Shown here piece by piece: positions 4,893 to 53,085 of a stretch of DNA of 64,000 bases. Every line of letters begins with the position of its first letter. Positions within the stretch are counted from its first letter, which is position 1. Origin of the DNA: an uncultured Pseudomonadota bacterium (GTDB lineage: Bacteria; Chloroflexota; UBA5177; JAJPKF01); assembly GCA_963836045.1 (NCBI GenBank), contig CAWIIC010000004.1, forward strand, positions 313,726-377,725, in the 5' to 3' direction. The position numbers and the translations under genes are program-made. The notes under the pieces are model-generated. The model was not told the origin of the DNA, searched no databases, and worked only from the letters and a program-made list of their open reading frames with translations.

Positions 4893-4960
4893 CTTCCGCT
4901 CTTCCGGTTTTACCGTCTAGCGTCCACCTCTATTCTTCTACCGTCTACCGTCTACCCCCT
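4893..4960 (+). repeat. TACCGTC heptad repeat block
   Basis: ttttaccgtctagcgtcc...ttctaccgtctaccgtctaccccc lies directly upstream of the RBS of the 4981 gene. Confidence 0.6.
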
Positions 4961-7439: not shown

Positions 7440-7715
7440 CCGCAAACGGCTTCATCCGCTGTCCCGAGCCCCTTTGTTCGAAAATGGCGTCGGACTCCTC
7501 CACGTTACTTTCGGCCGCGATCGCCGTGGCTCGTTCTTCCATCGCCCTTGTCCTCGCGGTCGCCTGGACTGAAAACTGAAACTTGAAGTGGCGTCGGAAG
7601 CCTAAATGGCGACGACCGCGCGAATACTGCGCTCCTGTTCGTCCAATGCCCGGGCGATGGCGGTCGCCTGGACTGACAACTGAAAACTGAAAACTGAAAA
7701 CTGAAAACTGAAAAC
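7440..7715 (+). repeat. two tandem copies of the dispersed heptad-tailed intergenic element (family 1)
   Basis: Each copy has a gttcgaaaatggcg module, a ccatcgccc..cgcggtcgcctgga core and a ctgaaaa/ctgacaa heptad tail. The 7306..7764 and 7505..7798 minus ORFs (FQFSVFSFQFSV) are repeat artefacts. Confidence 0.8.
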
Positions 7716-7848
7716 TTCCGACTGACCGGCCTCCCCTTTCCCCTGGAATACGAGTCTCCGGCATCGCAGTGAACCGTGCCTCTAATCGGTGTTGTCAATC
7801 GAGTACCTGCTTGGGTACCATGAGACGCAGAACAGGAGGGTTACGCTC

Positions 7849-17299: not shown

Positions 17300-19331
17300 G
17301 TGACCGGGCCTCGTGGACGGGGCAAGTCAACCCTTGAGGAACCCTCCTGCGCCCATCGTCGGTCGCGGTCGGTCGGCGTCTCTCCATCGTTTGAGCCCGG
17401 GCAGCCGCGTGATCCACAAATCTGCGCGATGGCGGATTCCCTGGAAATATATCCGGTCAACCCAAAATACTCAAACAGTCGCGGACCTCCCCTGTGACCC
17501 GTTCGGTGAACTCCATTGGCGCTCACGTCGACACGGTCGTCATCGCTGTAGCGGGTCGCCACGTTCCCGACATCGTTGGCGAAGCAGTCGAGTGCGGAGT
17601 GGCCCTCGCTGTGATCCTCCCGAGCGGATTCGGTGAGTCAGATGAGGAGGGCTGCTGTCTGGAGCTCAAGGCTTGTGGCTTTGCGCGGACAGATCAGCAT
17701 CGTAGGTCCAAACTGTATGGGCTTCTTCTCATGTTGACGACCGGGGTCGCTGCTGATAGCGGGCTGACTGAGGGCATTCGTTCTGGGCAGGCTCTGCCAT
17801 CGTGACGCAGAGCTGGAGTCAGAGGATGCTGGCTCGCGAACGCGGCTGAGTCACAGGGAATCGGCCTTAGCTATCGGATATCGAGTGGGGATTGTCTGGC
17901 AACCTCGGCACCGCTGCATATGTTGATTTCCTGGCGGAAGATCCGAACACGACCGTCATCGCGCTCTACCTGGAAAGCGTTGCTGATGGCCGGGCCTCGA
18001 TCCAGGCTTCACTCTGGCGCCGCGAAGCAGGCAAGGCGTTGGTCGCACTAAAACCAGGAATTTCAGAAGCCGGACGGCGCGCCTTGACTTCCCACACGGC
18101 CGCCCTCTCAGCAGGAACGACTGCAGCAGCTCTTGCGCTGCATTCAACGCAGGCAGGAAGTCCCGCTCGTGCTGGATGTCCATGAGCTGATACAGTGCCT
18201 ATCTCTCTTCTGCGGCGTTGTCGGCTTCCTCCAGGGCTCCGCGGCTATAACTCACTCGACCTCCGGAACCAAGGACCCGCGCCTGCTCGCCCATCTTCTC
18301 GCCGCTGAGGCGCACTTCCTGCTCTGCCGCCCTTCGCTCCCTATACCCGCATTGAAACTCTGGCAACAGGCCGCTCTCCCTGACTACGCCTTATTCGCGA
18401 ATCCTCTGGAATACCCACCTGGGCGGGGATTGTCTAGGGCTACACGGACGCGTACCGTCGCGCGCTCGAGATCACGGCTCTCGACCCCGACGTTGGCCTC
18501 GTAGTCGCCGCTCAGGACGCCTTTAATGGCCTCGACGTTCAAAGCCGGAAGTACGTCATGCTTCGATAGATTCCGCGGCAGCCGGGGTGGCTGTATCTGC
18601 TTCGACACACACCAATCCGAATCCTTGTCTACGTCGGCCGCGCCGATAGACGACGAGCCGCGGGCGATCCTGAGGGGTGGTCATGTCCCCGACCTTTATG
18701 GTGCTCGGCGCCGGGTCTGAGTGCTTTGGCTGATTTCGTCTCGTTCATCTTTACTCTCAGTCCACGGATTCCGCCCGCGAGCCTCCAATGGGGAACTGCT
18801 CTCTCAACCGGGGATCCTGGGTGAGCGCAGAGCCAAAGGCCTACTCCCAGACGACGGCATACCAACCATGGAAGCCACGCTGGCAAGGTCGTGAGATGCG
18901 GCCGTGGAAGCCGCCCGGAGGGCTCGGCTTCCCTGTCGCCTGAAAATAGAAGCCGAAGGCGTCTACACCACAAGAGCGACGTCGGCGGAGTCCGCCTAGG
19001 CTTGGAAGACGACGTGGCCGTGCGGCTCGCCTACGACGATATCATTGCTCGGCTCGGCATGAATTCTAGGTTTGGCGAACAAGGGCGCCAGGCAGCCTCG
19101 GCGGTGCAGCTGATGGCTCCGGCAGGCGTCGAGCTGATCTGCGGGGGCCCTCGAAGTTTGATCCGGCATTCGGCTAGACCTGTGTGGTTCGGGTTGGGCG
19201 GAGTATCAGCCGAAGTGCTCGACGACGAGTGTCTTCGACCCCATCCTCACCACCTTGACACGGCCTGTTTGATGATCCAGGAGATAAAAGGCGCCCCCAC
19301 GAATGGCTCCCCGCGGCGCTGCCCCCTGTGA
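17300..19331 (+). pseudogene. ADP-forming acetyl-CoA synthetase (acetate--CoA ligase family) remnant
   Basis: Pieces of the CoA-binding domain (VDTVVIAVAGRHVPDIVGEAVECG...GFGESDEEG), the linker (TVIALYLESVADGR...ALKPGISEAGRRALTSHTAAL) and the ATP-grasp domain (VGGVRLGLEDDVAVRLAYDDII) sit in different frames. All match the intact paralog at 25233..27365. Confidence 0.5.
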
Positions 19332-30148: not shown

Positions 30149-31080
30149 TTAACTCCGATCGCGCTTCCGTACGAACTCCTTGAACTCCATCTCCTGTCGG
30201 TCTTCTTCGAGCTTCCGGTACGCTTGGGTGCCGTTGGCGACCGTCGACATCATGTAGTTGTCCTGGATTGCCGCCAGCATTCCCTGCCGCTCGTAGGTCC
30301 GGTTTATCGCCAGCTTGTGAAGCTTCATTGCCTCCCGAGGCATCGCCCCCAGGCGACTCGCCAGCGCCACGGCATGATCGTCCAGTTCTATCTCAGATAC
30401 CACCTCCGTTACGAATCCCATACGCCATGCATCTGAGGCGTCGATCATATCCCCGGTCAGCAGGACCGCCTTCGCCGCCTTCATTCCCACCAGCCACGGC
30501 AGCATGCACGCCCCCGGCCCGGAAGGATGGCGTATCTCCGGGGATCCGAATTTTGCGCTCTCTGCCGCGATGGTGAAGTCGCATAGAAGGGACAGCTCTA
30601 GCGCAGCCTCCCAGGTTGTAGCCCCGCACTGCCGCTACATAGGGCTTGTCGCTCTGCCAGATGCGTAGAAAAACCTTCCAGTCCTCACGGAATCGGTCCA
30701 GCCACACTTCGACCGGCAGTGAGCCTTCCTCTGCCTCTGACTTCAGATCAAAGCCAGCCAAGAAGGCCCTTCCCGCCCCCGTGAAGAATCCACGCAGCTC
30801 ACCGAATCGTCGGCCTCCAGCTCCGAGAGTGCCGCGTCCAGCCCGTCAAGAAAATCTCGATTGATCGCGTTCAGGACCTTGGGTCTGTTGAACGTCACTC
30901 GAGCGACTCCGTCCGCCGGCCCGTCGACTACAATCGCGTCGATCGTGACACCTCCACCGTTTTCTGCGTGGCGTTCCTCGTCGTGTCGCGGTTCATGTCC
31001 CCGCCAGCCCAAGGTTCCTGGCGGTCCGGCGCGCGCACAGTGATCTTCGGCGTTGACCACGATGGCGCCGGCTGGCCCCA
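30149..31080 (-). pseudogene. enoyl-CoA hydratase (crotonase), frameshifted at about 30590 and about 30760 (and possibly near 30950)
   Basis: Three pieces lie in three frames: VTIDAIVVDGPADGVARVTFNRPKVLNAIN..., then GFDLKSEAEEGS...KPYVAAVRGYNLGG, then ELSLLCDFTIAAESAKFGSPEIRHPSGPGACMLPWLVGMKAAKAVLLTG...RKRDRS. Confidence 0.55.
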
Positions 31081-36399: not shown

Positions 36400-36590
36400 C
36401 CCGACGCTTGACCCTGCCGCCCGAGTCCGAAGATGGCGTTGGAACCCCTCCACGGCGACCATCGCCGCGACCACTCTAGCCGGTCCTCCCTGGCCGGGGC
36501 GCGGATCCCGGTTGTGGCGCGGTCATCCACGGCTCGCTGGTAGCGGTCGCCTGAAACTGAAAACTGAAAACTGAAAACTGACCCAGCGTC
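36400..36590 (+). repeat. heptad-tailed intergenic element (family 1)
   Basis: ccacggcgaccatcgccgcgaccact...gcggtcgcctgaaactgaaaactgaaaactgaaaactga. Confidence 0.75.
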
Positions 36591-36635: not shown

Positions 36636-37307
36636 CTATGAACTGAGGTCCCAGAACGGCTCCCTGAGCCCAAGGCTTCGAAAAACAGACTGCGCGTCGG
36701 CGACGGTCCGGCGACGCCAATCGGGCCGCAGCCTATCCGAGTACCATATGTCGGCCAGTTGCCACATGGTCTCCAGAGGAATGGTGGCCCGGACGTCGAT
36801 ACCTACGTTCGCTGCCCACCTGCTCTCGTGCTCCTCCGACCGGAAGAGAAGCATGGTCGTTCAGGTGTAGATGATGTCATCCCACCAGTGGGTAGCCGGA
36901 ACGCCGACGGTCGCGACGCCAGTTCCCGAAACAATCGAGCCGGCGGCGACCTCCAGTGTCTGACTAGCTCCGCAATCGGCACACTCGGCCGCCATGGTTC
37001 CTGTCCCGCCCAGGCAGGCGATGATGCCGAGCCCATCCCACACACAATTGCCGAAGTAGGAGCGGTCGCCCACAGTCACGGAGAACGGAGTCGGCACCGC
37101 TGAGAATGGGTTGGCCATGCGCAAGCGGTCGTCAGTGCCAGGTTCGAGCACGAAAACGTGCTCGCGATGAAGCTCGTGGAACGCGGCTACAACTTCGTCT
37201 TTGCTGACTACGAGTGCCCCGGCCACAGTACTGGCGTCCGGCACCGTCCCACTGTCGCGGGTAGCCCTCATGACCGCCAAGCGAACACTTTCGATAAAAG
37301 GTTCCAT
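36636..37307 (-). CDS. MerB-like organomercurial lyase homolog with an in-frame TGA aligned to catalytic Cys159; candidate selenoprotein, or else a nonsense pseudogene
   Basis: The N-terminal part (36864..37307) aligns to MerB: TVAGALVVSKDEVVAAF matches TLAGILDWPAERVAAVL, GDRSYFGNCVWD matches DDRRLYAWCALD (Cys96/Asp99), and AECADCG matches SHCAATG. TGA is at 36861..36863. Downstream in-frame TTMLLFRSEEHESRW matches CHVHFFASVPTAEDW. Confidence 0.6.
36831..36848 (-). promoter_or_regulatory. candidate bacterial SECIS-like hairpin (CUCUUCC-GGUC-GGAGGAG) 12 nt downstream of the MerB-like TGA
   Basis: 7-bp stem with one G·U pair. The 4-nt GGUC apical loop resembles the SelB-binding loop of E. coli fdhF. 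Spacing from the UGA fits the bacterial SECIS range. Confidence 0.3.
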
Positions 37308-37363
37308 GCGCCGCCTCTCAAGAGAAGATTCGTCGTACTGCTACCATCCGCTTTCCTCGCGGG

Positions 37364-38767
37364 TCACTTGACATCCTCGCACCTCGCCCGGCTCGTGCAC
37401 TGACTGGGTATCCAGTCTGTCGCCCGGTAGTCCTTGGTCACTTTAAAGTCCAGAAACTTCAGCAGGGTGCCACCCGCGGCCGACGAGAATGCGAGATAGA
37501 GGTTGTAGTGTATCGCCGTGAGATTCTCGCCGCAATCGGCCTCGTGGAAAGCAAAGAAGTTCGCGGGGCGACCGCAGAAAGACGCCTCGTATAGCTTCAT
37601 GGTCATGTGCTGAGGACTCTTGTGCGGAACGACGGCCAGATTGGTGGCATACGTGCCGAGCAGCTCACTCAGCTTGTCCGCGTATGGCACCTCTCCAAGC
37701 CACTGCTGGAGATGTGAGCCCACTTCATTGCTGAGGATGGGGTTGCTTATGTAGTGGGTGATGAGATCGGCGAGGCCCGGACTGTGGAAGTCGGTGAGGC
37801 CGTGATCGGCGATGTGGAACTTGCCCTGAAACCACTCGACCAGCGCGAAGCTCGCAATGGGTCCGTACAACGGTACACCCTTGGCCAGCGCATGCAGGGC
37901 GCCCCTGAGAGGCGCGTCGCTGGTCACGGCCGCCACTCGATCGAGCATCCTGTCGATCGCCTTCAGGTGCACCTTGTTGGTGATGGAGGGGACCCGATTG
38001 TCGTGCCATTCGACCAGCGCGCCTTCTTCGTCCGGGGCCAGCGAGATGTTGTGAACCGCGTAGAAGAGGTGGGGCTCAACGGGCAAAGGCTGTTCGCCGT
38101 ATCCATTCGCGGCAGGACAAGAGTTCAGACACTTGCTGGCTTTCGCCGAGATGGTCGTCGTAACCTCGGCTCTGACTCCCGGAGCCCAGTACCGGAGAAA
38201 AGCCATTCCCTGACCATCGGTAGTGGCCTTGGTAATCCCGGTGGTGCACTTGCGGCTTCCAGCCTCAAAGATGGAGCCCACGTCGCACAGGTAGCCACCA
38301 CCCTGAGCTCCGTTGACGACCTCTGCGCCTCCGAGGTGCGTGACGCTTGCCTCAACCTGCGCGCCATCGACCGCCTGCCCTTGGCTATCCTTGACGGTCA
38401 CGAGCACGTTGGTGCAACCGGAGACGCACGTATCCTCGAAGTCGCTCTGGTGAAGTCCCTTCTTCAGGAAGCCCGCCTGAGGCGAATCCCCGGGCAGATA
38501 CGAGGCGCCTGACGTGAGAGGACTGGTCAGCGGCGTTACGGTAACATCCAGACTGCACTCGTCTTGCGCCGCCTGGCCGTGGGGAGTCCCAGAGCGCAGC
38601 GAGTTGCCTGAGGACCCGGTAGTGCATCCGTAGGTGTAGTTGTCTGCTGAAGAAGCTGCGCTTGTGATGCCTCCCGCATTCACCCGCACGTCCGTGAGCA
38701 GCTTGGAGATGCTACTCATCTGAGGCCGCGCGTCGGCAGTCACGGCGGTGATGCGTGTGTCGCTCAC
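37364..38767 (-). CDS. hypothetical Cys-rich protein (467 aa)
   Basis: Long ORF with no recognisable domain. Its last roughly 55 codons are duplicated at 39860..40030. Confidence 0.5.
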   Translation of the reverse strand: MSDTRITAVTADARPQMSSISKLLTDVRVNAGGITSAASSADNYTYGCTTGSSGNSLRSGTPHGQAAQDECSLDVTVTPLTSPLTSGASYLPGDSPQAGFLKKGLHQSDFEDTCVSGCTNVLVTVKDSQGQAVDGAQVEASVTHLGGAEVVNGAQGGGYLCDVGSIFEAGSRKCTTGITKATTDGQGMAFLRYWAPGVRAEVTTTISAKASKCLNSCPAANGYGEQPLPVEPHLFYAVHNISLAPDEEGALVEWHDNRVPSITNKVHLKAIDRMLDRVAAVTSDAPLRGALHALAKGVPLYGPIASFALVEWFQGKFHIADHGLTDFHSPGLADLITHYISNPILSNEVGSHLQQWLGEVPYADKLSELLGTYATNLAVVPHKSPQHMTMKLYEASFCGRPANFFAFHEADCGENLTAIHYNLYLAFSSAAGGTLLKFLDFKVTKDYRATDWIPSQCTSRARCEDVK

Positions 38768-38811: not shown

Positions 38812-39733
38812 TCAGGGCGACGCCGACGTTGTCACCCGGGGAGCCGAAGCCGGTCCCGCTGATAGTGATTGCCGTTCCTCCCTTCGACGGGCCATCCGTC
38901 GGGCTAACACTGGAAACGGTAGGACCCGGGCGATGTGTATGGCCATGGTGAACCCGGCTCCATCGCTCGTGAGGTTGGAGGTGGCGATGGTGATGACGTT
39001 TGCTCCATCCAGGTTCACCTGAGCAAGGTCGTTCACGTGGGCAAGTGATTCGCCATCGACGGTCACGCTGCTGAACGAAACCTGACTAAACTCGCCCAGG
39101 CCATATCCCGGATCAGGGAATCCGCCAATCTGCGTCGAGACGACTGTCGCCCCCGAACCCGCGAAGGCCTGAGCTTGCCCATCCGTGTGATCGTCGTACG
39201 AAACCGTGGTCCCCGATGGCGTGACGTTGTCCGTGAGCGTGATGACGTCACCGGGGTATGCCCTGCCGAAACCGTAGCGGTTGTACCGAATGCCTGGAAT
39301 CTCGAAGTCAAACCGGTAGATCGGCTGATATGCTCCGCACAGGTTCTGGCTATAGACGGTCGACTGTCCTCCGACCGAGGTCGACTCGAGAATGCCAACG
39401 TCGAGGGAGCCCACGTAGGATGCCTTGCAGGTAAGAGCGGGCTCGACGAAAGTGACGGACACGCTGCTGGAGGTCTCGGTCCTTGTCCACGCGTACCCGG
39501 CCGAGTTGCTGCTCGGCACGATCCCAACCCTGACGTTGGGAAGCTGGTTGGAGCGAATGACCGTTGGGCGCGGGTTTCGGTGCGAAGAAAGCGGTGGCCG
39601 GCCCAGCGTTGGTGGAGGTGGGCAGCCATACCGAGAGGAAGGCAACCAGAAGCGCCGCGATCCAGCCGACGACCCTGAGAGGGAACCCGGCGTGAGTATC
39701 TGCTTCACTTCCTTCGGACAGGTGATGAGTCAT
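38812..39733 (-). CDS. hypothetical membrane-anchored/secreted protein, frameshift near 39570
   Basis: N-terminus MTHHLSEGSEADTHAGFPLRVVGWIAALLVAFLSVWLPTSTNAG in one frame. It continues as ...IRSNQLPNVRVGIVPSSNSAGYAWTRTETSSSVSVTF... in the -1 frame. Confidence 0.4.
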
Positions 39734-40055
39734 CGCGTTTCCTTTCGTGGCATGTCTTCAATGATGCGGTTCGATCGCAGGCGCCGAGGGCGCTCAACTG
39801 CCGCGTGCCCAGAGCGCGGACGCCCGGCCGGTGCTCCGTCCCGGCTGGGCGCCGCGGTCGCGTGACATCCTCGCACTTTGCGCGGCTCGTGCACTGACTG
39901 GGTATCCAGTCTGTCGCCCGGCAGTTCCTGGTCGCTTTGAAGTCCAGATACTTCAGAACGGCGCCACCCGCGGCCGACGAGAATGCGAGATAGAGGTTGT
40001 AGTGCATCGCCCTAAGATCGTGAGCAGGCGTCGGTCTGGTCATGGTTTGACTCAC
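39705..40055 (-). CDS. hypothetical ORF carrying a duplicated 3' fragment of gene 37364..38767
   Basis: HYNLYLAFSSAAGGAVLKYLDFKATRNCRATDWIPSQCTSRAKCEDV is near-identical to the C-terminus of the 467-aa protein. Confidence 0.3.
   Translation of the reverse strand: MSQTMTRPTPAHDLRAMHYNLYLAFSSAAGGAVLKYLDFKATRNCRATDWIPSQCTSRAKCEDVTRPRRPAGTEHRPGVRALGTRQLSALGACDRTASLKTCHERKRDDSSPVRRK
39860..40030. repeat. about 170-bp near-identical duplicate of 37364..37540 (3' end of the 467-aa hypothetical gene)
   Basis: Nucleotide identity is over 85% by eye (gacatcctcgca...ggctcgtgcactgactgggtatccagtctgtcgcccgg...gccgacgagaatgcgagatagaggttgtagtg). Confidence 0.8.
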
Positions 40056-40839: not shown

Positions 40840-41480
40840 CAGGTGGTTGACTGAGCCCAACCCGCGTCTGTGCGCCGGCCCCCGACGACCGCAGCCGGGC
40901 TTCCCCTTTCCGAAGACTGACCCCAGTCCGCGCCCGTCCGCCAACTCTCGACAACATCCGCTTGGTCCTCCGTGGCTCTGGGCGGTCGACACGTCTGTGC
41001 GCCGCTCCCCCGACAACCCCCAGCCTCCCGTGCCCAGCCGGTCGCGCCCGTGCGCCAACCGCCGACAACGTCTGCCCCACACTCCGCGAACCGGTCGCAG
41101 CGTCTGTGCGCCGGCCTCGCTAACGTCGCCACGGTTTTCCGTCCCCAGGCGGTTGCCGCGTCTCTGCGCTGACCGCCGACAACGTCCGCCCGATATTCCG
41201 TACTCAGGCGGTCACGGCGTCTGCGCCCCCTCCCCCGACAAACCCGCCCAGCCTTCTGCGCCCGGGCGGTTGCCGCGTTCTGCACTGACTGCCGACAACG
41301 TCCGCCCGATATTCCGTGCTCAGGCGGTCACGGCGTCTGCGCGGCCCTCCCCGACAACCCCAGGCCAACCTACCGTGCGCTGGGCGGTTGCCGCGTCTCT
41401 GCGCTGACCGCCGACAACGCCCGCCCGACATTCCGTGCTGAGACGGTCACGGTGTCTGTGCGCCGCCCCTCCCCGACAAC
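40840..41480 (+). repeat. degenerate tandem array, about 5.5 copies of a roughly 120-nt unit made of two roughly 60-nt sub-repeats
   Basis: Sub-repeat A is ggcggtcacggcgtctgcgc..ccccgacaaccc.gcccagcctaccgtgc.cgggc. Sub-repeat B is ggttgccgcgtctctgcgctgaccgccgacaacgtccgcccgatattccgtgctcag. There are no unique spacers. The array merges into a family-1 element. Confidence 0.8.
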
Positions 41481-41562
41481 CCCGCCCAGCCTACCGTGCC
41501 CGGGCGATCGCGGTCGCTGGAACTGAAAACTGACAACTGAAAACTGACAACTCCCTACCGTG
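41480..41562 (+). repeat. heptad-tailed intergenic element (family 1), abutting the stop of the LCP gene
   Basis: ccgggcgatcgcggtcgctggaactgaaaactgacaactgaaaactgacaact. Confidence 0.75.
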
Positions 41563-43772: not shown

Positions 43773-44480
43773 ATGCAATTCGAGAACACCTTTTCCGTTG
43801 ACGCTCCGATCGACAGGGTCTGGAGCTACCTCCTTGACGTGCAAGCGGTCGCCCCTTGTGTCCCCGGAGCAGAACTGACCGAGATAGTGAGTGACACGGA
43901 GTTCAAGGGCACGGTCAAGGTCAAACTCGGCGCCGTCCAGGTTTCCTACAAAGGAACACTAGCCTTGAAGGAGGTGGACGAAGCTGCGAGGAAGGTCGTG
44001 TTGGTCGCCAGCGGCAACGAAACCCGCGGGTCCGGCAGCGCCTCCGGAACGGTCACCTCGCATCTGGTTGCCGAAAGCGCCGCGCGCACCTCCGTCCGCA
44101 TAGTCTCGGAAGTCAACATCACGGGCCGTGTCGCTCAATTCGGCCGCAACATCATGCAGGACGTCTCCAACCGTCTCATCCGTGAGTTCGCCAAGTGCGT
44201 GGAGAGCAATCTGGTTGCTCGTGAGGCCCAGCTTCCCCCATCCCTCGGGGCGACTGCTGACGGCAACGATGAGTCCCCGGCCACACCTAACGCCCCCGAG
44301 CAGCCTGTCGGCTCAAGTGCGACGCCGCAGGCGGAGGCTGAACTCCGCCCTCCCTCCGCGAACCCCGAATTCGGCGCTCCCTCCGCGAACCCTGATTCTG
44401 CCGCTCGCTCCGCGAACCTGATTCAGGCGCTCGCTCCACGAACCCTCAGTTCGGCGAGCCCTCCACCAACCCTGATTTAG
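43773..44480 (+). CDS. SRPBCC-family CoxG-like protein with C-terminal low-complexity repeat tail
   Basis: MQFENTFSVDAPIDRVWSYLLDVQAVAPCVPGAELTEI is a CoxG family signature. The tail runs into the 27-nt tandem repeat. Confidence 0.7.
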   Translation: MQFENTFSVDAPIDRVWSYLLDVQAVAPCVPGAELTEIVSDTEFKGTVKVKLGAVQVSYKGTLALKEVDEAARKVVLVASGNETRGSGSASGTVTSHLVAESAARTSVRIVSEVNITGRVAQFGRNIMQDVSNRLIREFAKCVESNLVAREAQLPPSLGATADGNDESPATPNAPEQPVGSSATPQAEAELRPPSANPEFGAPSANPDSAARSANLIQALAPRTLSSASPPPTLI

Positions 44481-44600
44481 ACGCTCGCTCCACCGACCCT
44501 GAACTCGGCGGGCCATCCACCAACCCTGGATTCGGCTCTCGCTCTGAATTCGGCGGGTCCTCCACCAACCCTGAATTCGGCGCTAGCTCCGCGAACCGAC
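44340..44600 (+). repeat. tandem 27-nt repeat (about 9 copies, consensus cctgaattcggcgctcgctccgcgaac) at and after the 3' end of the CoxG-like gene
   Basis: It encodes PEFGAPSANP-like nonapeptides in the gene frame. Repeat copies differ by indels, so the frame breaks. Confidence 0.75.
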
Positions 44601-44789: not shown

Positions 44790-45100
44790 GAAAGCGCCGT
44801 CGGAATCCACCACGGCGACTGTCGCCACCACTATCGTGGCCCCAGCCCTCCGTTTCCGTGGGGCGGGTCGCGGTCGTGCCTTGTTCTTCCATCGCCCGGG
44901 CGATCGCGGTCGCCTGGAACTGAAACCTAAAACTACTTTTCATGCTTCGTGACGCGTCAAGGGCATGGGAGGCTGTTCGAAAATGCGTCGCAATCCAGCC
45001 ACGGCGACCACCGTCGCGACCACTGTGGCCCGTTCGTCCATCGCCCGTGCGCTTGCGGTCGCTGGAACTGAAAACTGAAAACTGAAAACTGACAACTTAA
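44790..45100 (+). repeat. two tandem copies of the heptad-tailed intergenic element (family 1)
   Basis: Both copies contain catgcttcgtg / gttcgaaaatg / ccaccacggcgac..tcgcc.c.accact / ccatcgcccgggcgatcgcggtcgc(c)tggaactgaaa... modules. The 44662..44943 minus ORF is an artefact. Confidence 0.8.
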
Positions 45101-47550
45101 ATCTTCTTCGTCACTCGCTTATCCAGATAGTCCAACAGAACGTGCTCCCCGAGGTGATACGGACCCGTGAGAAATGCGCGTCCCCGGTTGACCGCCGTCA
45201 TCCGCTCTACAAACGATACGAGTGCCTGGTCGGCGTCGAGCATGAACGTGTTGATGACGATGCCCTCCCGGTAACAGCGTGCAGCCTCCGTGAGCGCGGC
45301 CCGCCGTACAAACCCCGGAGCGGGGTAATTGACGTAAATCCCCCCATTCGGTACGCAACACGCGGTCGGCTCCCCATCGGTGACGAAGAGAATCTGGCGG
45401 TTTCCTCCCCGATGGCGAGCGAGCAGCCGGCGTGACAGCGCCAGAGCCATCTCGTAGTTGGTGCCCTGCACCATGTAGTTCTCCGCCAGTGCCGGCAGAT
45501 CGTCTCTCGTCAGTTCGTAAGCCACGTCGGCGAACCCGATAATCTGCAAGACGTCGTGCGGGAACTGTCCCCGGATCAGGCTGTCGAGCGCGAGAGCGGT
45601 CTTCTTGGCCTCTAAGAACAATCCCCTCAAAAACATCGATCGTGACGTGTCAATCGCCAGCACCGTGGCGTGCCGCACCGCCCGCTCTGTCTCGAAAACG
45701 TCGAAATCTGAAGGCATGAGTCGGAGCGGAGACCGTGCTCCTCGACGCACGCCGTTCATCAGAGTGCTCCTAAGGTCAACGTGAAACGGGTCGCCAAAGT
45801 TGTACGGCTTGCTGTGGGCGGCTAGATCGCCGCCCTGCCCTCTTCGGTGCGTCTGGTGTCCACCCTGACGGTCGTCCTTGAGCTTCTGAAAAATCTCCTT
45901 GAGTGCGCTGTCGCCGAGTTTGCGAATAGCCCGTGGAGTCAATTCCAACCGCTCGCCGTTGCGCTTGAGGTACCCCGCCTCGAGGAGGGACTCGGCCATG
46001 TCCTTCACCGCCTCGATCTGAGCCCCCATTCGCCGTCCGAATAACGAGCTCGGGCTGAGCCCGCTGGTGTTGTTGGCAGCGTCGCTAAGTGCCGACAACG
46101 GGTCTCGCGCCAGCGCTTCCTCCAGCTGCTCCATGGCTTGGAGCCTGCGCATCATGTCCAAAGACTCGCCGAACCCGGGCGCGTCCGACCCTTCGAAGGG
46201 AAAGCCCCCTCCCTGAATCGGGTATCCCATGGCTTCGAGGTTCGCGCCCAGCTGCGCCAGGTCGAGCTGCAACCGGTCGTCCCGCAGCAGCTCGCTCATC
46301 ATGTCAAGCAGCTCTTGTCGAGATTGCGGGTCCATGCTGTCCAGCAGGGCCTGTACCTGTGACGCCTGTTGCTGCAAGTAGCTCAAGAGGTCGTCCAGCG
46401 TCTCGATGTCGGGCGGAAAGTTCTGACCCCATTTGTTCATGAACTCTTGAAAAGCGTGCCGATCACCCTGGCGGCTTGCCTCGATCATCTGATTGAGGTC
46501 CTGGACCATCTGCCGCGTCGCGTCCAGCATCTCGGGCGTTATCTGCCCGACGCCGTCCTTCAAAGATTGGGAATACTGCTGCAGCAATCGACGCTGCAGA
46601 TCGCCGACCAGGCTCTCGAAAGCCTCTCGAGCCTCTGCCGACATAAAGTCATACTCGCGCAGGCTGCGTATCCGTCCCGCGTTGTCCGGCGGCAGTTGAT
46701 CTAGCTGCGATCGCTTACGTTCCAGCATGCGCTCGAGCATGGCTTCGAGCTCGCGTACATCGCCTCCTGAACCGTCTGCACCTCCGTCGCCGGCGTGCTC
46801 ACCGCCCTGCTGCGGCGCCGATCCGCCCGGCTGAGAACCCTGCGGACCTCCGTCGCCGGCACGCTCACTGCCCTGCTGCGGCGCCGATCCGCCCGGCTGA
46901 GAACCCTGTGAACGTCCGTCGCCGGCACGCCCACCGCCCTGCTGCGGCGCCGATCGGCCCGGCTGAGAACCCTGTGAACGTCCGTCGCCGGCACGCTCAC
47001 TGCCCCTCTGCCGCCCCCCGTCGGACTGAGAACCGTCTGCGAAGCCGCCTGCCCTCTGTTGCCCCGCCTGCCCCTGCTCCCGGCCCGGCTCAGAACCCCC
47101 GGGAAGACCAGCCGTCTGTTGCCCTGCTTGCCCCTGCTCCCTGCCCGACTCGCCTTCCCCTGGCTTGGATGGGCTCTCGCCCGTCGAGCTCCCGTCTGAT
47201 CCTTCCGTGCTGCTCCGATTCGTGCCTCGACTCTCGATGCTCTCCCGCTCCATCTGGATGATCTCGTCCAGCTTCTCTCGGATGGCATCGATGGTTCGCG
47301 ACGGATCGTAACGGTCCAGCATGGCTTCGCGCTCGCGCTGCATCTGCTGCAGCAGCCGCCTGAGGCCGTCAAAACGGCGACCGTCAGGCAGCGTAAAGCC
47401 CCGCTGCAGCAGGTTCCGCAAAGCCTTGCGCGGATCTCCCGCGCGAAGCAGGTCGTCGGCTAGCTGGTCGAGTATGTCGTCGGCAGAGAAGTCCGGCACT
47501 TCTTGCGTGCCGTCCCAAGCCGAGTACTGATAGGGCTGTCGTGCCTCCAT
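45097..47550 (-). CDS. VWA domain-containing protein (CoxE-like C-terminal vWA) with long acidic N-terminal region and internal tandem repeats
   Basis: The C-terminus (VLAIDTSRSMF...ILFVTDGEPTA) matches the VWA_CoxE pattern. The central region holds about 4.5 copies of a 60-nt repeat encoding QGSQPGGSAPQQG(G/S)ERAGDGR. Confidence 0.75.
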   Translation of the reverse strand: MEARQPYQYSAWDGTQEVPDFSADDILDQLADDLLRAGDPRKALRNLLQRGFTLPDGRRFDGLRRLLQQMQREREAMLDRYDPSRTIDAIREKLDEIIQMERESIESRGTNRSSTEGSDGSSTGESPSKPGEGESGREQGQAGQQTAGLPGGSEPGREQGQAGQQRAGGFADGSQSDGGRQRGSERAGDGRSQGSQPGRSAPQQGGGRAGDGRSQGSQPGGSAPQQGSERAGDGGPQGSQPGGSAPQQGGEHAGDGGADGSGGDVRELEAMLERMLERKRSQLDQLPPDNAGRIRSLREYDFMSAEAREAFESLVGDLQRRLLQQYSQSLKDGVGQITPEMLDATRQMVQDLNQMIEASRQGDRHAFQEFMNKWGQNFPPDIETLDDLLSYLQQQASQVQALLDSMDPQSRQELLDMMSELLRDDRLQLDLAQLGANLEAMGYPIQGGGFPFEGSDAPGFGESLDMMRRLQAMEQLEEALARDPLSALSDAANNTSGLSPSSLFGRRMGAQIEAVKDMAESLLEAGYLKRNGERLELTPRAIRKLGDSALKEIFQKLKDDRQGGHQTHRRGQGGDLAAHSKPYNFGDPFHVDLRSTLMNGVRRGARSPLRLMPSDFDVFETERAVRHATVLAIDTSRSMFLRGLFLEAKKTALALDSLIRGQFPHDVLQIIGFADVAYELTRDDLPALAENYMVQGTNYEMALALSRRLLARHRGGNRQILFVTDGEPTACCVPNGGIYVNYPAPGFVRRAALTEAARCYREGIVINTFMLDADQALVSFVERMTAVNRGRAFLTGPYHLGEHVLLDYLDKRVTKKI
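46780..47110. repeat. in-frame 60-nt tandem repeat (about 4.5 copies) inside the VWA gene
   Basis: ccgcccggctgagaaccctgcggacctccgtcgccggcacgctcactgccctgctgcggcgccgat repeated with minor variation. Confidence 0.75.
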
Positions 47551-47589: not shown

Positions 47590-47922
47590 GTAGGCGGACT
47601 TCTGCCAAGAAGATGGCCTCGGAATCCACCACGTCCCCCGTGGCCACGACTACTGCAGTCCGGCCCTCGGTGGTCGGGAGGAGAATCGCGGTCGTGGCCC
47701 GTCTTTAATGGCCCGAGCGGTCGCGGTCGCCTGCAGCTGACGCATGACAACTAAGAGCTATTTTTCCATGCTGCGCGGTAGCCCCGCGCATGGGTGGCTA
47801 GTGGGAAAATAGCACCGGATTCCGCACCGCGATCCCCGCAGCGACACTGGCCCGGTCTTCCACCGCTCGCGCGCTAGCGGTCGCTGGAACTGAAAACTGA
47901 CAACTGAAAACTGACAACTCCG
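47590..47922 (+). repeat. two tandem copies of the heptad-tailed element (the first has a degenerate tail)
   Basis: ccaccacgtcccccgtggccacgactact...gcggtcgcggtcgcctgcagctgacgcatgacaact and tttttccatgctgcgcgg...gcggtcgctggaactgaaaactgacaactgaaaactgacaact. Confidence 0.75.
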
Positions 47923-48425: not shown

Positions 48426-49364
48426 AAAGTAATCGTGACGGGTGCTACCGGTTTTGTCGGTTCCGCCCTCGTGAGGAGGCTGCTGTCGCGGGGCGATCGC
48501 GTCGTCGCCGTCTCCCGCAATCCCGACAAGGCAGCAGTAGTGCTTGGGAACGATGTAACGGCCGTCCCCTGGTCCCCCCCGGCTTCGAACGCCGCCCTGG
48601 TAGACGAGGTCAACGGCGCGGACGCTATCGTCAACCTCGCCGGTGAGCCTCTGGCCGATAAACGCTGGACCCCGGAGGAGAAGGATCGCATCCTGCGCAG
48701 CCGCGTTGATGCCGGCCGTTCCATTCTTGAGGCCGTGCGTATGGCGACTTCGCGGCCCGGCGTCCTGATCAACGCCTCCGCGATCGGGTATTACGGCGAC
48801 CGGGGCGACGAGCGCTTGGTCGAGTCGAGTCCTCCGGGACATGACTTCCTCGCTGATGTGGTTCGGCAATGGGAGGCTTCAGTCGGGCCCGTAATCGAGT
48901 TGGGAGTGCGCCTCGTCCTGCTTCGCACCGGATTTCCGGTTCTCGGCTCGTCCGGCGGCGCACTGCCCCGGTTTGCGTTGCCGTTCAGATTCTTTGGCGG
49001 CGGCGTGCTCGGCCCTCGCGACCAGTGGGTTTCCTGGATCCACATCGAAGACGAGGTCGACCTCATACTCTTCGCCCTGGACTCGGACGTCGTATCCGGC
49101 CCCGTCAACGCCACCGCGCCGAACCCCGTTACTATGGCAGAGTTCTCCAACGGCATCGGGCACGCGCTCAAACGCCCTGTCTGGGTACCGGCGGTCCCAA
49201 CGTTCCTGCGGTTAGTGTTGGGCGAGAGGGCCGAGCCTCTGTTCACGAGTCAGCGTGTCTTCCCCGATCGCGCGCTAGGCCTAGGATTCCAATTCAAATA
49301 CGTGAACGCCAACCAAGCCCTGGACTCTCTCCTAGGAAACCCCCATCCCCAGCCCTCCCGGTAA
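48426..49364 (+). CDS. TIGR01777/DUF1731 family NAD-dependent epimerase/dehydratase (YfcH-like)
   Basis: MKVIVTGATGFVGSALVRRLL Rossmann motif and a C-terminal DUF1731-like region. Confidence 0.75.
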   Translation, partial: KVIVTGATGFVGSALVRRLLSRGDRVVAVSRNPDKAAVVLGNDVTAVPWSPPASNAALVDEVNGADAIVNLAGEPLADKRWTPEEKDRILRSRVDAGRSILEAVRMATSRPGVLINASAIGYYGDRGDERLVESSPPGHDFLADVVRQWEASVGPVIELGVRLVLLRTGFPVLGSSGGALPRFALPFRFFGGGVLGPRDQWVSWIHIEDEVDLILFALDSDVVSGPVNATAPNPVTMAEFSNGIGHALKRPVWVPAVPTFLRLVLGERAEPLFTSQRVFPDRALGLGFQFKYVNANQALDSLLGNPHPQPSR

Positions 49365-49369
49365 TCGCC

Positions 49370-49560
49370 TGCCTACCACCGGACAGCTTACCGTCTACAG
49401 TCCCTCCCGGTAATCTCAGTCTTAACATCCGACAGCTTACCGTCTACAGTCCGTCGTCAACCGGTCTACCGTCGACCGACTTCCCCGGTGGTCTATTTTC
49501 ACTCAATCGTCAATCAACCACTGAAAAACTGACAACTGATAACTGACAACTGAAAACTTA
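49370..49560 (+). repeat. composite heptad block: TACCGTC-type units followed by AACTGAC/AACTGAA units
   Basis: cagcttaccgtctacagtcc...cagcttaccgtctacagtccgtcgtcaaccggtctaccgtcgacc...ccactgaaaaactgacaactgataactgacaactgaaaactta. Confidence 0.7.
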
Positions 49561-52699: not shown

Positions 52700-53085
52700 A
52701 CGCCTTAACCGGCAGGGGGATCCCCATGCTTCGTGGTGCCTGAAAGTCATACTGATCCCGTTCGACCATGGCCGTCGTAATCCTCCCCGCCGACCATTGC
52801 CGCGACTACACCAACCCTGACTTCCATACCCCGGGCGGGTGCGGTCGCTGGAACTGACAACTGAAAACTGACAACTGAAAACTGACAACCATTTTCTCCA
52901 TGCTTCGTGGTGTCCAACGCCCTGGGAGGCCAGTTCGAAAATGGAAACGGATCGAGGAGAGCCTCCCCGCCGACCATCGCCGCGACTACAGCAACCCTGG
53001 CTTCCATGCCCCGGGCGGTTGCGGTCGCTGGAACTGAAAACTGAAAACTGACGACTGAAAACTGAATCATGTACCATGATGTGCT
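52700..53085 (+). repeat. two tandem copies of the heptad-tailed intergenic element (family 1)
   Basis: catgcttcgtggtg...ccgccgaccat(t/c)gccgcgactaca..aaccctg(a/g)cttccat(a/g)ccccgggcgg(g/t)tgcggtcgctggaactga(c/a)aactgaaaactga... repeated twice. The 52595..53077 and 52747..53211 minus ORFs are artefacts. Confidence 0.8.

Follow-up and report, generated by a model that had tools for sequence, protein, structure and literature searches.

A 64,000-nucleotide stretch of contig CAWIIC010000004.1 (assembly GCA_963836045.1), hereafter the window, carries on its minus strand a member of the MerB organomercurial lyase family whose reading frame is crossed by one TGA at the place of a catalytic cysteine. 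We consider it very likely that this locus is one intact gene for a selenocysteine (Sec)-containing MerB-family enzyme, made by SelB-dependent recoding of the UGA under the direction of a selenocysteine insertion sequence (SECIS). The preliminary description of this DNA had proposed a hairpin-directed Sec at the position of MerB Cys159 and not a nonsense codon. This proposal is borne out by the recurrence of the TGA at this column in all of the 80 species genomes analysed, by homologs with Cys in its place, by a hairpin that is frozen in sequence and compensated in its pairs, and by an apical loop like that of fdhF. At the level of the family, these comparisons support Sec recoding.

The gene and its place in the MerB family

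Translation of the minus strand from 37307 to 36636 yields 223 sense codons followed by a terminal TAG (36638..36636). The sole internal stop is the TGA at 36863..36861, codon 149, and the frame contains no frameshifts and no further stops. The recoded coding sequence (36636..37307, minus strand) would comprise an N-terminal winged-helix-like region and a MerB catalytic domain, with the proposed Sec at codon 149; a Shine-Dalgarno-like GAGAGG (37314..37319, minus strand), read from the sequence, precedes the ATG start (37307) by 6 nt. The Pfam MerB profile PF03243 covers residues 68-189 and runs across the TGA (E = 1.5e-18, 67.4 bits versus a cutoff of 27). The earlier claims of a MerB homolog with a single in-frame TGA, free of frameshifts and with homology continuing past the stop, were confirmed by the translation and this profile match. 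In public databases the gene appears as two open reading frames (ORFs) on the minus strand, one of 148 codons (36861..37307), identical to database protein P0001, and one of 72 codons (36636..36854), which starts at Met152, three codons past the UGA, and is identical to P0123. Both proteins come from one NCBI contig (559,313 bp), so the public annotation splits the gene in two, and the 148-codon call is an artefact that arises because the annotation ends the gene at the UGA.

The catalytic register was read from alignments to structures in the PDB. In a search with the single sequence, GNCVWD of the window protein aligned with AWCALD of MerB, as in the preliminary description, which equates Cys88 (TGT, 37044..37046, minus strand) with Cys96 and Asp91 (GAT, 37035..37037, minus strand) with the proton donor Asp99; both residues are invariant in the family alignments. 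A profile built from 30 full-length members, in which C stood for Sec, gave matches to MerB2 (5C17) at E = 1.4e-20, MerB (3F2G) at E = 1.8e-9 and others at ∼1e-9. Here the family stretch f-t-C-s-t-m-l-l-F-r-s-E-e-h aligned with s-f-C-S-h-v-h-f-F-a-s of the C160S structure 3F2G, and the TGA column (36861..36863, minus strand) fell on the first Cys of 'sfCS', that is Cys159, and likewise on the equivalent Cys of 5C17. The initial placement on Cys159, given with a caution that the register might be off by one, is upheld by this alignment. Judged by these sequence alignments, Cys88, Asp91 and residue 149 match the MerB triad Cys96/Asp99/Cys159, with a predicted, UGA-encoded Sec replacing Cys159. 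A further motif, C109-x-D-C112 (TGT GCC GAT TGC, 36972..36983, minus strand), has the clade form C-[PA]-D-C-G and is invariant in one alignment and nearly so in that of the 30 members. In the PDB alignments, Cys109 aligns with MerB Cys117, and Cys112 has no counterpart in MerB R831b.

The fold was modelled with AlphaFold2 on P0036, a Cys-form homolog that is 41% identical to the window protein, and not on the window protein itself. With database sequences plus orphan C-terminal fragments as input, the model reached a mean predicted local distance difference test (pLDDT) score of 93.5 and a predicted template modelling (pTM) score of 0.89; when N-terminal-half (UGA-ended) sequences alone were supplied, pLDDT was < 50 at residues 137-173. 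All of the top 11 Foldseek matches of the P0036 model in the PDB were MerB or MerB2 (probability 1.00, template modelling scores 0.58-0.73). On this model, the two halves once joined are confidently predicted to form one complete MerB fold. Identity to canonical MerB or MerB2 is only ∼18-20%, and the window protein, at ∼23 bits, does not reach the NCBIfam MerB equivalog cutoffs (193 and 200).

Conservation of the UGA and of the downstream hairpin

Among 5.8 billion clustered proteins, 1076 relatives were identified, and 114 of the 120 best database homologs stop at the UGA column after W-W-D-D-I-x-x-T, even at ∼50% identity. When 1.84 billion cluster representatives were searched exhaustively with a hidden Markov model, the number of matching clusters was 199 at E ≤ 1e-30, 1108 at E ≤ 1e-10 and 2439 at E ≤ 1e-3; among the top 150 of the 199 clade clusters (50% identity), nearly all stop at the last profile position, 150. 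A scan of one genome per GTDB species found a relative in at least 590 species, of which the best 80 loci were analysed by local tblastn. TGA occupied the column in every one of the 80 species genomes; over all 84 loci the count was 83, with TGC in the remaining one, and TAA or TAG never occurred. Such exclusivity is not expected of ordinary stops, because only ∼46% of the predicted ORFs in the window end in TGA. Each TGA in the 80 genomes is followed by 69-92 conserved in-frame codons. By the phyla named in the records, the 80 loci comprise 21 from Actinomycetota, 20 from Acidobacteriota, 14 each from Chloroflexota and Gemmatimonadota, three from Dormibacterota, one each from Myxococcota, Planctomycetota, Calditrichota, Neomarinimicrobiota and Krumholzibacteriia, and three unclassified; these carriers span at least 10 phyla. 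Genomes with the gene include the complete chromosomes OY970205.1 and OY969474.1.

Homologs with Cys at the UGA column are P0036 (locus L004, codon TGC), L089-L093, P0188, P0197, P0241, P0268, P0269 and P0278. Five of the loci (L089-L093, three of them unique) came from a metagenome scan with the pattern W-W-D-[DN]-I-x-x-T-C-x-T-M, from which the hairpin codons were left out on purpose, and the top 150 cluster representatives contributed six further Cys forms and one Trp form (P0220). The check that had been suggested, whether orthologs carry Cys or TGA at this column, was thus answered by TGA throughout the species genomes and Cys in rare homologs. A Sec majority with a Cys minority, here roughly 20 to 1, is the classic selenoprotein pattern.

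The putative SECIS element is a hairpin at 36831..36848 (minus strand), within the codons Leu154-Phe-Arg-Ser-Glu-Glu159. It begins 12 nt after the UGA and consists of a 5′ arm CUCUUCC (36848..36842), an apical tetraloop GGUC (36841..36838) and a 3′ arm GGAGGAG (36837..36831). Coordinates and folding agree with the preliminary description of a 7-bp stem with a GGUC loop 12 nt 3′ of the UGA, and the 48-nt stretch containing it folds at -18.9 kcal/mol (z = -2.1 versus dinucleotide shuffles). Among 82 Sec-form sequences, CTC TTC CGG TCG GAA GAG is almost invariant, third positions included. Specifically, the synonymous-codon entropy computed on these sequences is low at positions of the hairpin (codons +5 to +10), with 0.45 bits of a maximum of 2.58 at Leu+5, 0 of 1 at Phe+6 (TTC in 82 of 82), 0.67 of 2.58 at Arg+7 and 0.48 of 2.58 at Ser+8; the corresponding values for flanking codons are 1.95 of 2.58 at Leu+4, 1.83 of 2.0 at Val+12 and 2.06 of 2.58 at Arg+14. 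Over the 12 pairs of the structure, 88.1% of cells are complementary in the proper register, as compared with 38-59% when the 3′ partners are slid by 1-3 columns. Two-sided changes that preserve pairing occur at four pairs, e.g. C18-G31 is G-C in three Acidobacteriota sequences and C22-G27 is U-A in four sequences. RNAalifold recovers the core stem independently, and in several homologs the folded stem is extended and contains a bulged C.

The loop had earlier been likened to the SelB-binding loop of fdhF, and the comparison holds: the Escherichia coli fdhF SECIS has the same apical GGUC tetraloop in a hairpin directly 3′ of the UGA inside the coding sequence, and the spacing is 1 nt apart (nt 22-25 from the U of the UGA, codon 140 in the K-12 genome, versus nt 23-26 in the window gene). 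In contrast, the stem sequences are unrelated, the 7-bp upper stem of the window copy has no evident bulged U, and many homologs show a bulged C in an extended lower stem, unlike the fdhF element. From these sequence patterns the hairpin appears to be conserved at the RNA level, with a GGUC loop of the canonical SelB-binding type.

The hairpin is lost in some homologs with a sense codon at the column and kept in others. An old Cys clade (L004, L089 and L090/91/93), with the motif T-C-T-T-M-N-L-F-R-S-E, writes the L-F-R-S-E peptide by other synonymous codons, with Phe as TTT in three of three unique sequences, and has lost the hairpin; the L004 region folds at z = +0.97, i.e. it has no hairpin. 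L092 (Cys, TGT), which is nested among Sec-type sequences, keeps it, as expected for a recent Sec-to-Cys conversion. L087 (659-1261, TGG for Trp) and L088 (68-775, GGA for Gly) are each one nucleotide away from TGA and have an intact hairpin. We read L087, L088 and L092 as recent one-nucleotide changes or read errors; for the Trp and Gly forms, this would mean mutations that recently inactivated the gene, or errors in the reads of short contigs. The Trp form P0220 is known from its protein sequence alone. The idea that the Trp and Gly homologs are TGA codons translated under genetic code 4 or 25 was rejected, since their DNA shows TGG and GGA.

A second gene of a similar kind was found beside the MerB-like gene in two related genomes. 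It encodes a CMD/AhpD-like protein with an in-frame TGA at the active site, C-R-Y-[TGA]-L-S-S-H, i.e. the CxxCxxxH site of AhpD in the form CxxU, and its TGA is followed by a conserved CCUGCAGUUGCAGG hairpin. The gene lies at L001:15228-15806 (GCA_037025585.1), where the annotation divides it into ORFs of 77 and 105 amino acids, and at L007:12663-13220 (a Dormibacterota metagenome-assembled genome, MAG), in both cases 5-6 kb from the MerB-like gene. This neighbouring CxxU gene, a member of a known selenoprotein family, indirectly supports Sec use in these two Dormibacterota-type carriers. Sec decoding and tRNA-Sec have been documented in Actinobacteria, Chloroflexi and Acidobacteria (PMC1794560, PMC5389517).

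Several observations weigh against the reading as a Sec-containing MerB-type enzyme. The 64-kb window contains no selA, selB, selD or tRNA-Sec, nor indeed any tRNA gene, and ∼1.2 Mb of sequence flanking related loci contained no tRNA-Sec, SelA or SelB. A SelD-like tblastn match in L056 was rejected as a HypE/AIR-synthase-type protein that lacks the N-terminal Cys/Sec-Lys motif of SelD. Covariation in the hairpin is modest (10 cells at four pairs); it is limited because the stem sits in a conserved protein motif, and the nucleotide conservation of the hairpin is in part protein-driven. An Rfam scan of the region found no matching model, only matches at chance level. Since the sense-codon variants L087, L088 and L092 retain the hairpin, its presence alone does not prove Sec insertion. 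Finally, no mer genes (MerA, MerR, MerT, MerP) lie near the gene in the window and none recur across the 80 loci.

Taken with the comparative evidence, these points leave Sec insertion as the highly probable reading, and we infer that the residue inserted is Sec and that the genome from which the window derives has SelB and tRNA-Sec. In the mechanism that we propose, the ribosome would reach UGA149 during translation, and the apical GGUC loop, acting as a SECIS, would recruit SelB-GTP-Sec-tRNA(Sec), so that Sec is inserted and termination avoided. The 223-residue product would fold as a full MerB with Cys88, Asp91 and Sec149 in the places of the triad. By analogy with MerB, the soft metal of an organometallic substrate might then be bound between thiolate and selenolate, and the carbon-metal bond cleaved by protonolysis with a proton from Asp91. 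The steps of this scheme before the chemistry are well supported; the lyase reaction, the identity of its substrate (a compound of mercury or of some other metal) and what becomes of the metal once bound are presumed from the kinship with MerB.

Alternatives to selenocysteine insertion

Of the other explanations, the one that fares best, though we regard it as improbable, is that the UGA is decoded but not as Sec, either as Cys by a tRNA-Sec-like tRNA(Cys) with a SelB-like factor or as Trp or Gly by hairpin-stimulated near-cognate read-through. tRNA(Cys) opal suppressors of the SelC* type do exist in some bacteria, but the reports of them are confined to anaerobic Firmicutes, Thermodesulfobacteria, Nitrospirae and Proteobacteria and do not include the carrier phyla (PMC5389517). 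The natural TGG (Trp), GGA (Gly) and TGT (Cys) variants at the column speak for this reading. A catalytic position that binds metal would not function with Trp or Gly. The loop, moreover, is of the canonical SelB-binding type, and UGA is an ordinary stop elsewhere in the window, for instance at the TrpRS gene, which ends in TGA ahead of a separate HxlR gene. (This in-frame pair had itself been a candidate for a TGA-bridged gene and was rejected as two ordinary genes.)

Still less probable is a split gene, in which the UGA ends a 148-residue subunit, translation restarts at an AUG three codons on, and the two halves assemble without residue 149. Codon +3 is indeed ATG in 87% of members, and gene callers annotate the halves apart: a search with the C-terminal 74 residues returned 18 proteins, all of them orphan fragments of 67-75 amino acids that start at the Met three codons past the UGA, the window's own P0123 among them. 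However, codon +3 is Ile (ATT, ATC or ATA) in ∼13% of members and so is not always a restart codon. Codons +1 and +2 are conserved as amino acids with synonymous variation; codon +2, which falls after the UGA but before the next ATG, encodes Thr in 89% of sequences, and every one of the four Thr codons is used; conservation of the residue while its codons vary indicates that it is translated. A restart would also leave the exclusive use of TGA as the stop unaccounted for and the conserved GGUC hairpin without a role, and it would delete the residue equivalent to the essential Cys159, whereas each Cys-form homolog is one continuous chain that has Cys precisely there.

Inactivation of a former MerB-like gene by a recent nonsense mutation is extremely improbable: fragment-like ORFs do occur in the window (e.g. 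a 118-amino-acid C-terminal piece of ECH_1 and a 146-amino-acid ATP-grasp_5 fragment), but the window gene has no other lesion, the same TGA stands at the same column in all 80 species genomes of at least 10 phyla with the downstream frame intact and under amino-acid-level selection, and independent nonsense mutations would neither coincide nor always be TGA. Equally remote is an error of sequencing or assembly at 36861..36863, such as a TGC or TGT miscalled as TGA, given that the identical 148- and 72-amino-acid products are recorded from two sources (NCBI and ENA), that hundreds of independent assemblies have the same codon, and that the window copy has the Sec-form hairpin and not the codon pattern of the Cys clade.

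Relation to known enzymes and genomic surroundings

A MerB-type selenoprotein has been described before. SaoL (NCBIfam NF040728) is a MerB-like organometallic lyase selenoprotein of the SAO system, with its Sec aligned to Cys159; it was reported only in strict anaerobes (0.3% of species), has a C-U motif and is encoded in a nine-gene SAO locus (Haft & Gwadz, bioRxiv 10.1101/2022.07.06.499078). The view in the preliminary description that MerB is no established selenoprotein family is therefore outdated, SaoL having been described in 2022/2023 (bioRxiv 10.1101/2022.07.06.499078; PMC13188914), and we likewise rejected the possibility of a wholly new selenoprotein family. A table in a 2026 review lists SaoL alone under MerB (PMC13188914).

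Like SaoL, the window clade consists of PF03243 proteins with a single UGA-encoded Sec proposed at the Cys159 position, keeps the equivalents of Cys96 and Asp99, and has rare Cys-form members. In contrast to SaoL with its C-U motif, the motif of the window clade is [YFH]-T-U-x-T-M-L-L-F-R-S-E-E-H; Sec is preceded by Thr (89%), Ser, Asn, Ala or Pro and never by Cys, so that there is no SaoL-type CU dipeptide. SaoL is the best NCBIfam match of the window protein, but at 32.2 bits the model's cutoff of 140 is not reached, and none of 30 clade members reaches it (best E-value 1.7e-14). No SAO locus is present in the window or recurs across the 80 loci, and the clade, found in at least 590 species genomes, is known from largely soil-derived MAGs of Actinomycetota, Acidobacteriota, Chloroflexota, Gemmatimonadota and Dormibacterota, whereas SaoL was reported from strict anaerobes only. 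By score, motif, neighbourhood and taxa, the window gene is not SaoL; its clade is distinct from, and much larger and differently organised than, SaoL, the kind first described in 2022. With MerB R831b (PDB 1S6L, 3F0P) and MerB2 (5C17) it shares the predicted fold, the triad positions and an N-terminal helical region before the MerB core, and it differs from them in the proposed Sec for Cys159, the extra conserved Cys112 and the lack of a mer operon.

NCBIfam release 20 has no model for the window clade, a UGA-ended member of which is named 'alkylmercury lyase family protein' by NCBI, and our literature search, whose coverage did not extend to subscription journals, found no paper describing it. 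The clade is very likely a second MerB-type Sec clade apart from SaoL and far more widespread: no fewer than 590 species-level genomes carry it, and at 50% identity its members fall into 199 clusters. Its carriers represent the dominant soil phyla, and in public databases it is annotated as a 148-amino-acid 'alkylmercury lyase family protein' plus an orphan ORF of ∼72 amino acids; annotation pipelines and selenoprotein catalogues thus miss a large family. A survey of mer genes stresses strict conservation of Cys96/Asp99/Cys159 and never mentions selenocysteine (PMC8261052); by inference, surveys that require these residues would miss UGA-ended Sec forms, and how far soils can cleave organomercurials or other organometals may therefore be under-counted. 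We suggest only tentatively, and as a rather unlikely possibility, that the clade may be a major overlooked selenium-dependent carbon-metal lyase family of aerobic soil bacteria, acting as a mer-operon-independent demethylase of methylmercury or other organometals. If so, it would have been hidden both by surveys that demand Cys159 and by gene callers, which end the protein at UGA. The natural Sec/Cys pair at the mercury-binding site could be used to test what selenium adds to the cleavage of the carbon-metal bond.

A search of a plasmid collection returned distant homologs alone (∼30% identical), mostly on the Ralstonia megaplasmid. A full-length MerB-like 'hypothetical protein' at this level of identity is present on 98 Ralstonia solanacearum megaplasmid records (e.g. 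AP024102.1:751143-751790), and one Rubrobacter plasmid was also matched.

In the window, the neighbours of the MerB-like gene are a glyoxalase-like protein, a GntR regulator, a BNR/Ycf48-like (BNR-repeat) protein and unannotated ORFs, and the wider window holds ordinary housekeeping genes; no neighbouring gene family recurs in more than nine of the 80 loci. Two partial ORFs cover only portions of their profiles: that at 30149-30505 (minus strand) matches ECH_1 positions 140-229 of 251, and that at 18891-19331 (plus strand) matches ATP-grasp_5 positions 57-165 of 221. Both may be gene fragments, and could be what was meant earlier by a window 'rich in pseudogenes'. The last ∼50 residues (...HYNLYLAFSSAAGGTLLKFLDFKVTKDYRATDWIPSQCTSRARCEDVK) of a 467-amino-acid ORF (37364-38767, minus strand) recur nearly unchanged in a 116-amino-acid ORF two genes away (39705-40055, minus strand). 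Neither ORF has a Pfam match, and the shared C-terminal part is either a duplicated module or the mark of a truncated paralog.

The window also contains two families of short repeats and three long tandem repeats. Heptamer arrays of four to six copies (minus-strand unit CAGTTTT or CAGTTGT) occupy approximately nine intergenic sites, at 7672-7716, 36554-36581, 41521-41552, 45066-45101, 47888-47919, 49527-49558, 52852-52889 and 53032-53066, with a degenerate copy at 7569-7585. All have one orientation, regardless of the strand of the flanking genes, and one array lies 55 nt downstream of the stop of the MerB-like gene. A 17-mer of the repeat has 26 matches at ≤ 2 mismatches, whereas chance would give 0. 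Short tandem repeats of a second family, with TACCGTC / CGTCTACCGTAAC units, are likewise intergenic (1198-1333, 1612-1640, 4911-4956 and 49353-49452). Longer tandem repeats lie in or beside predicted ORFs, namely 116 nt × 3.1 at 41139-41506, 27 nt × 10 at 44338-44597 and 66 nt × 3.6 copies at 46769-47005.

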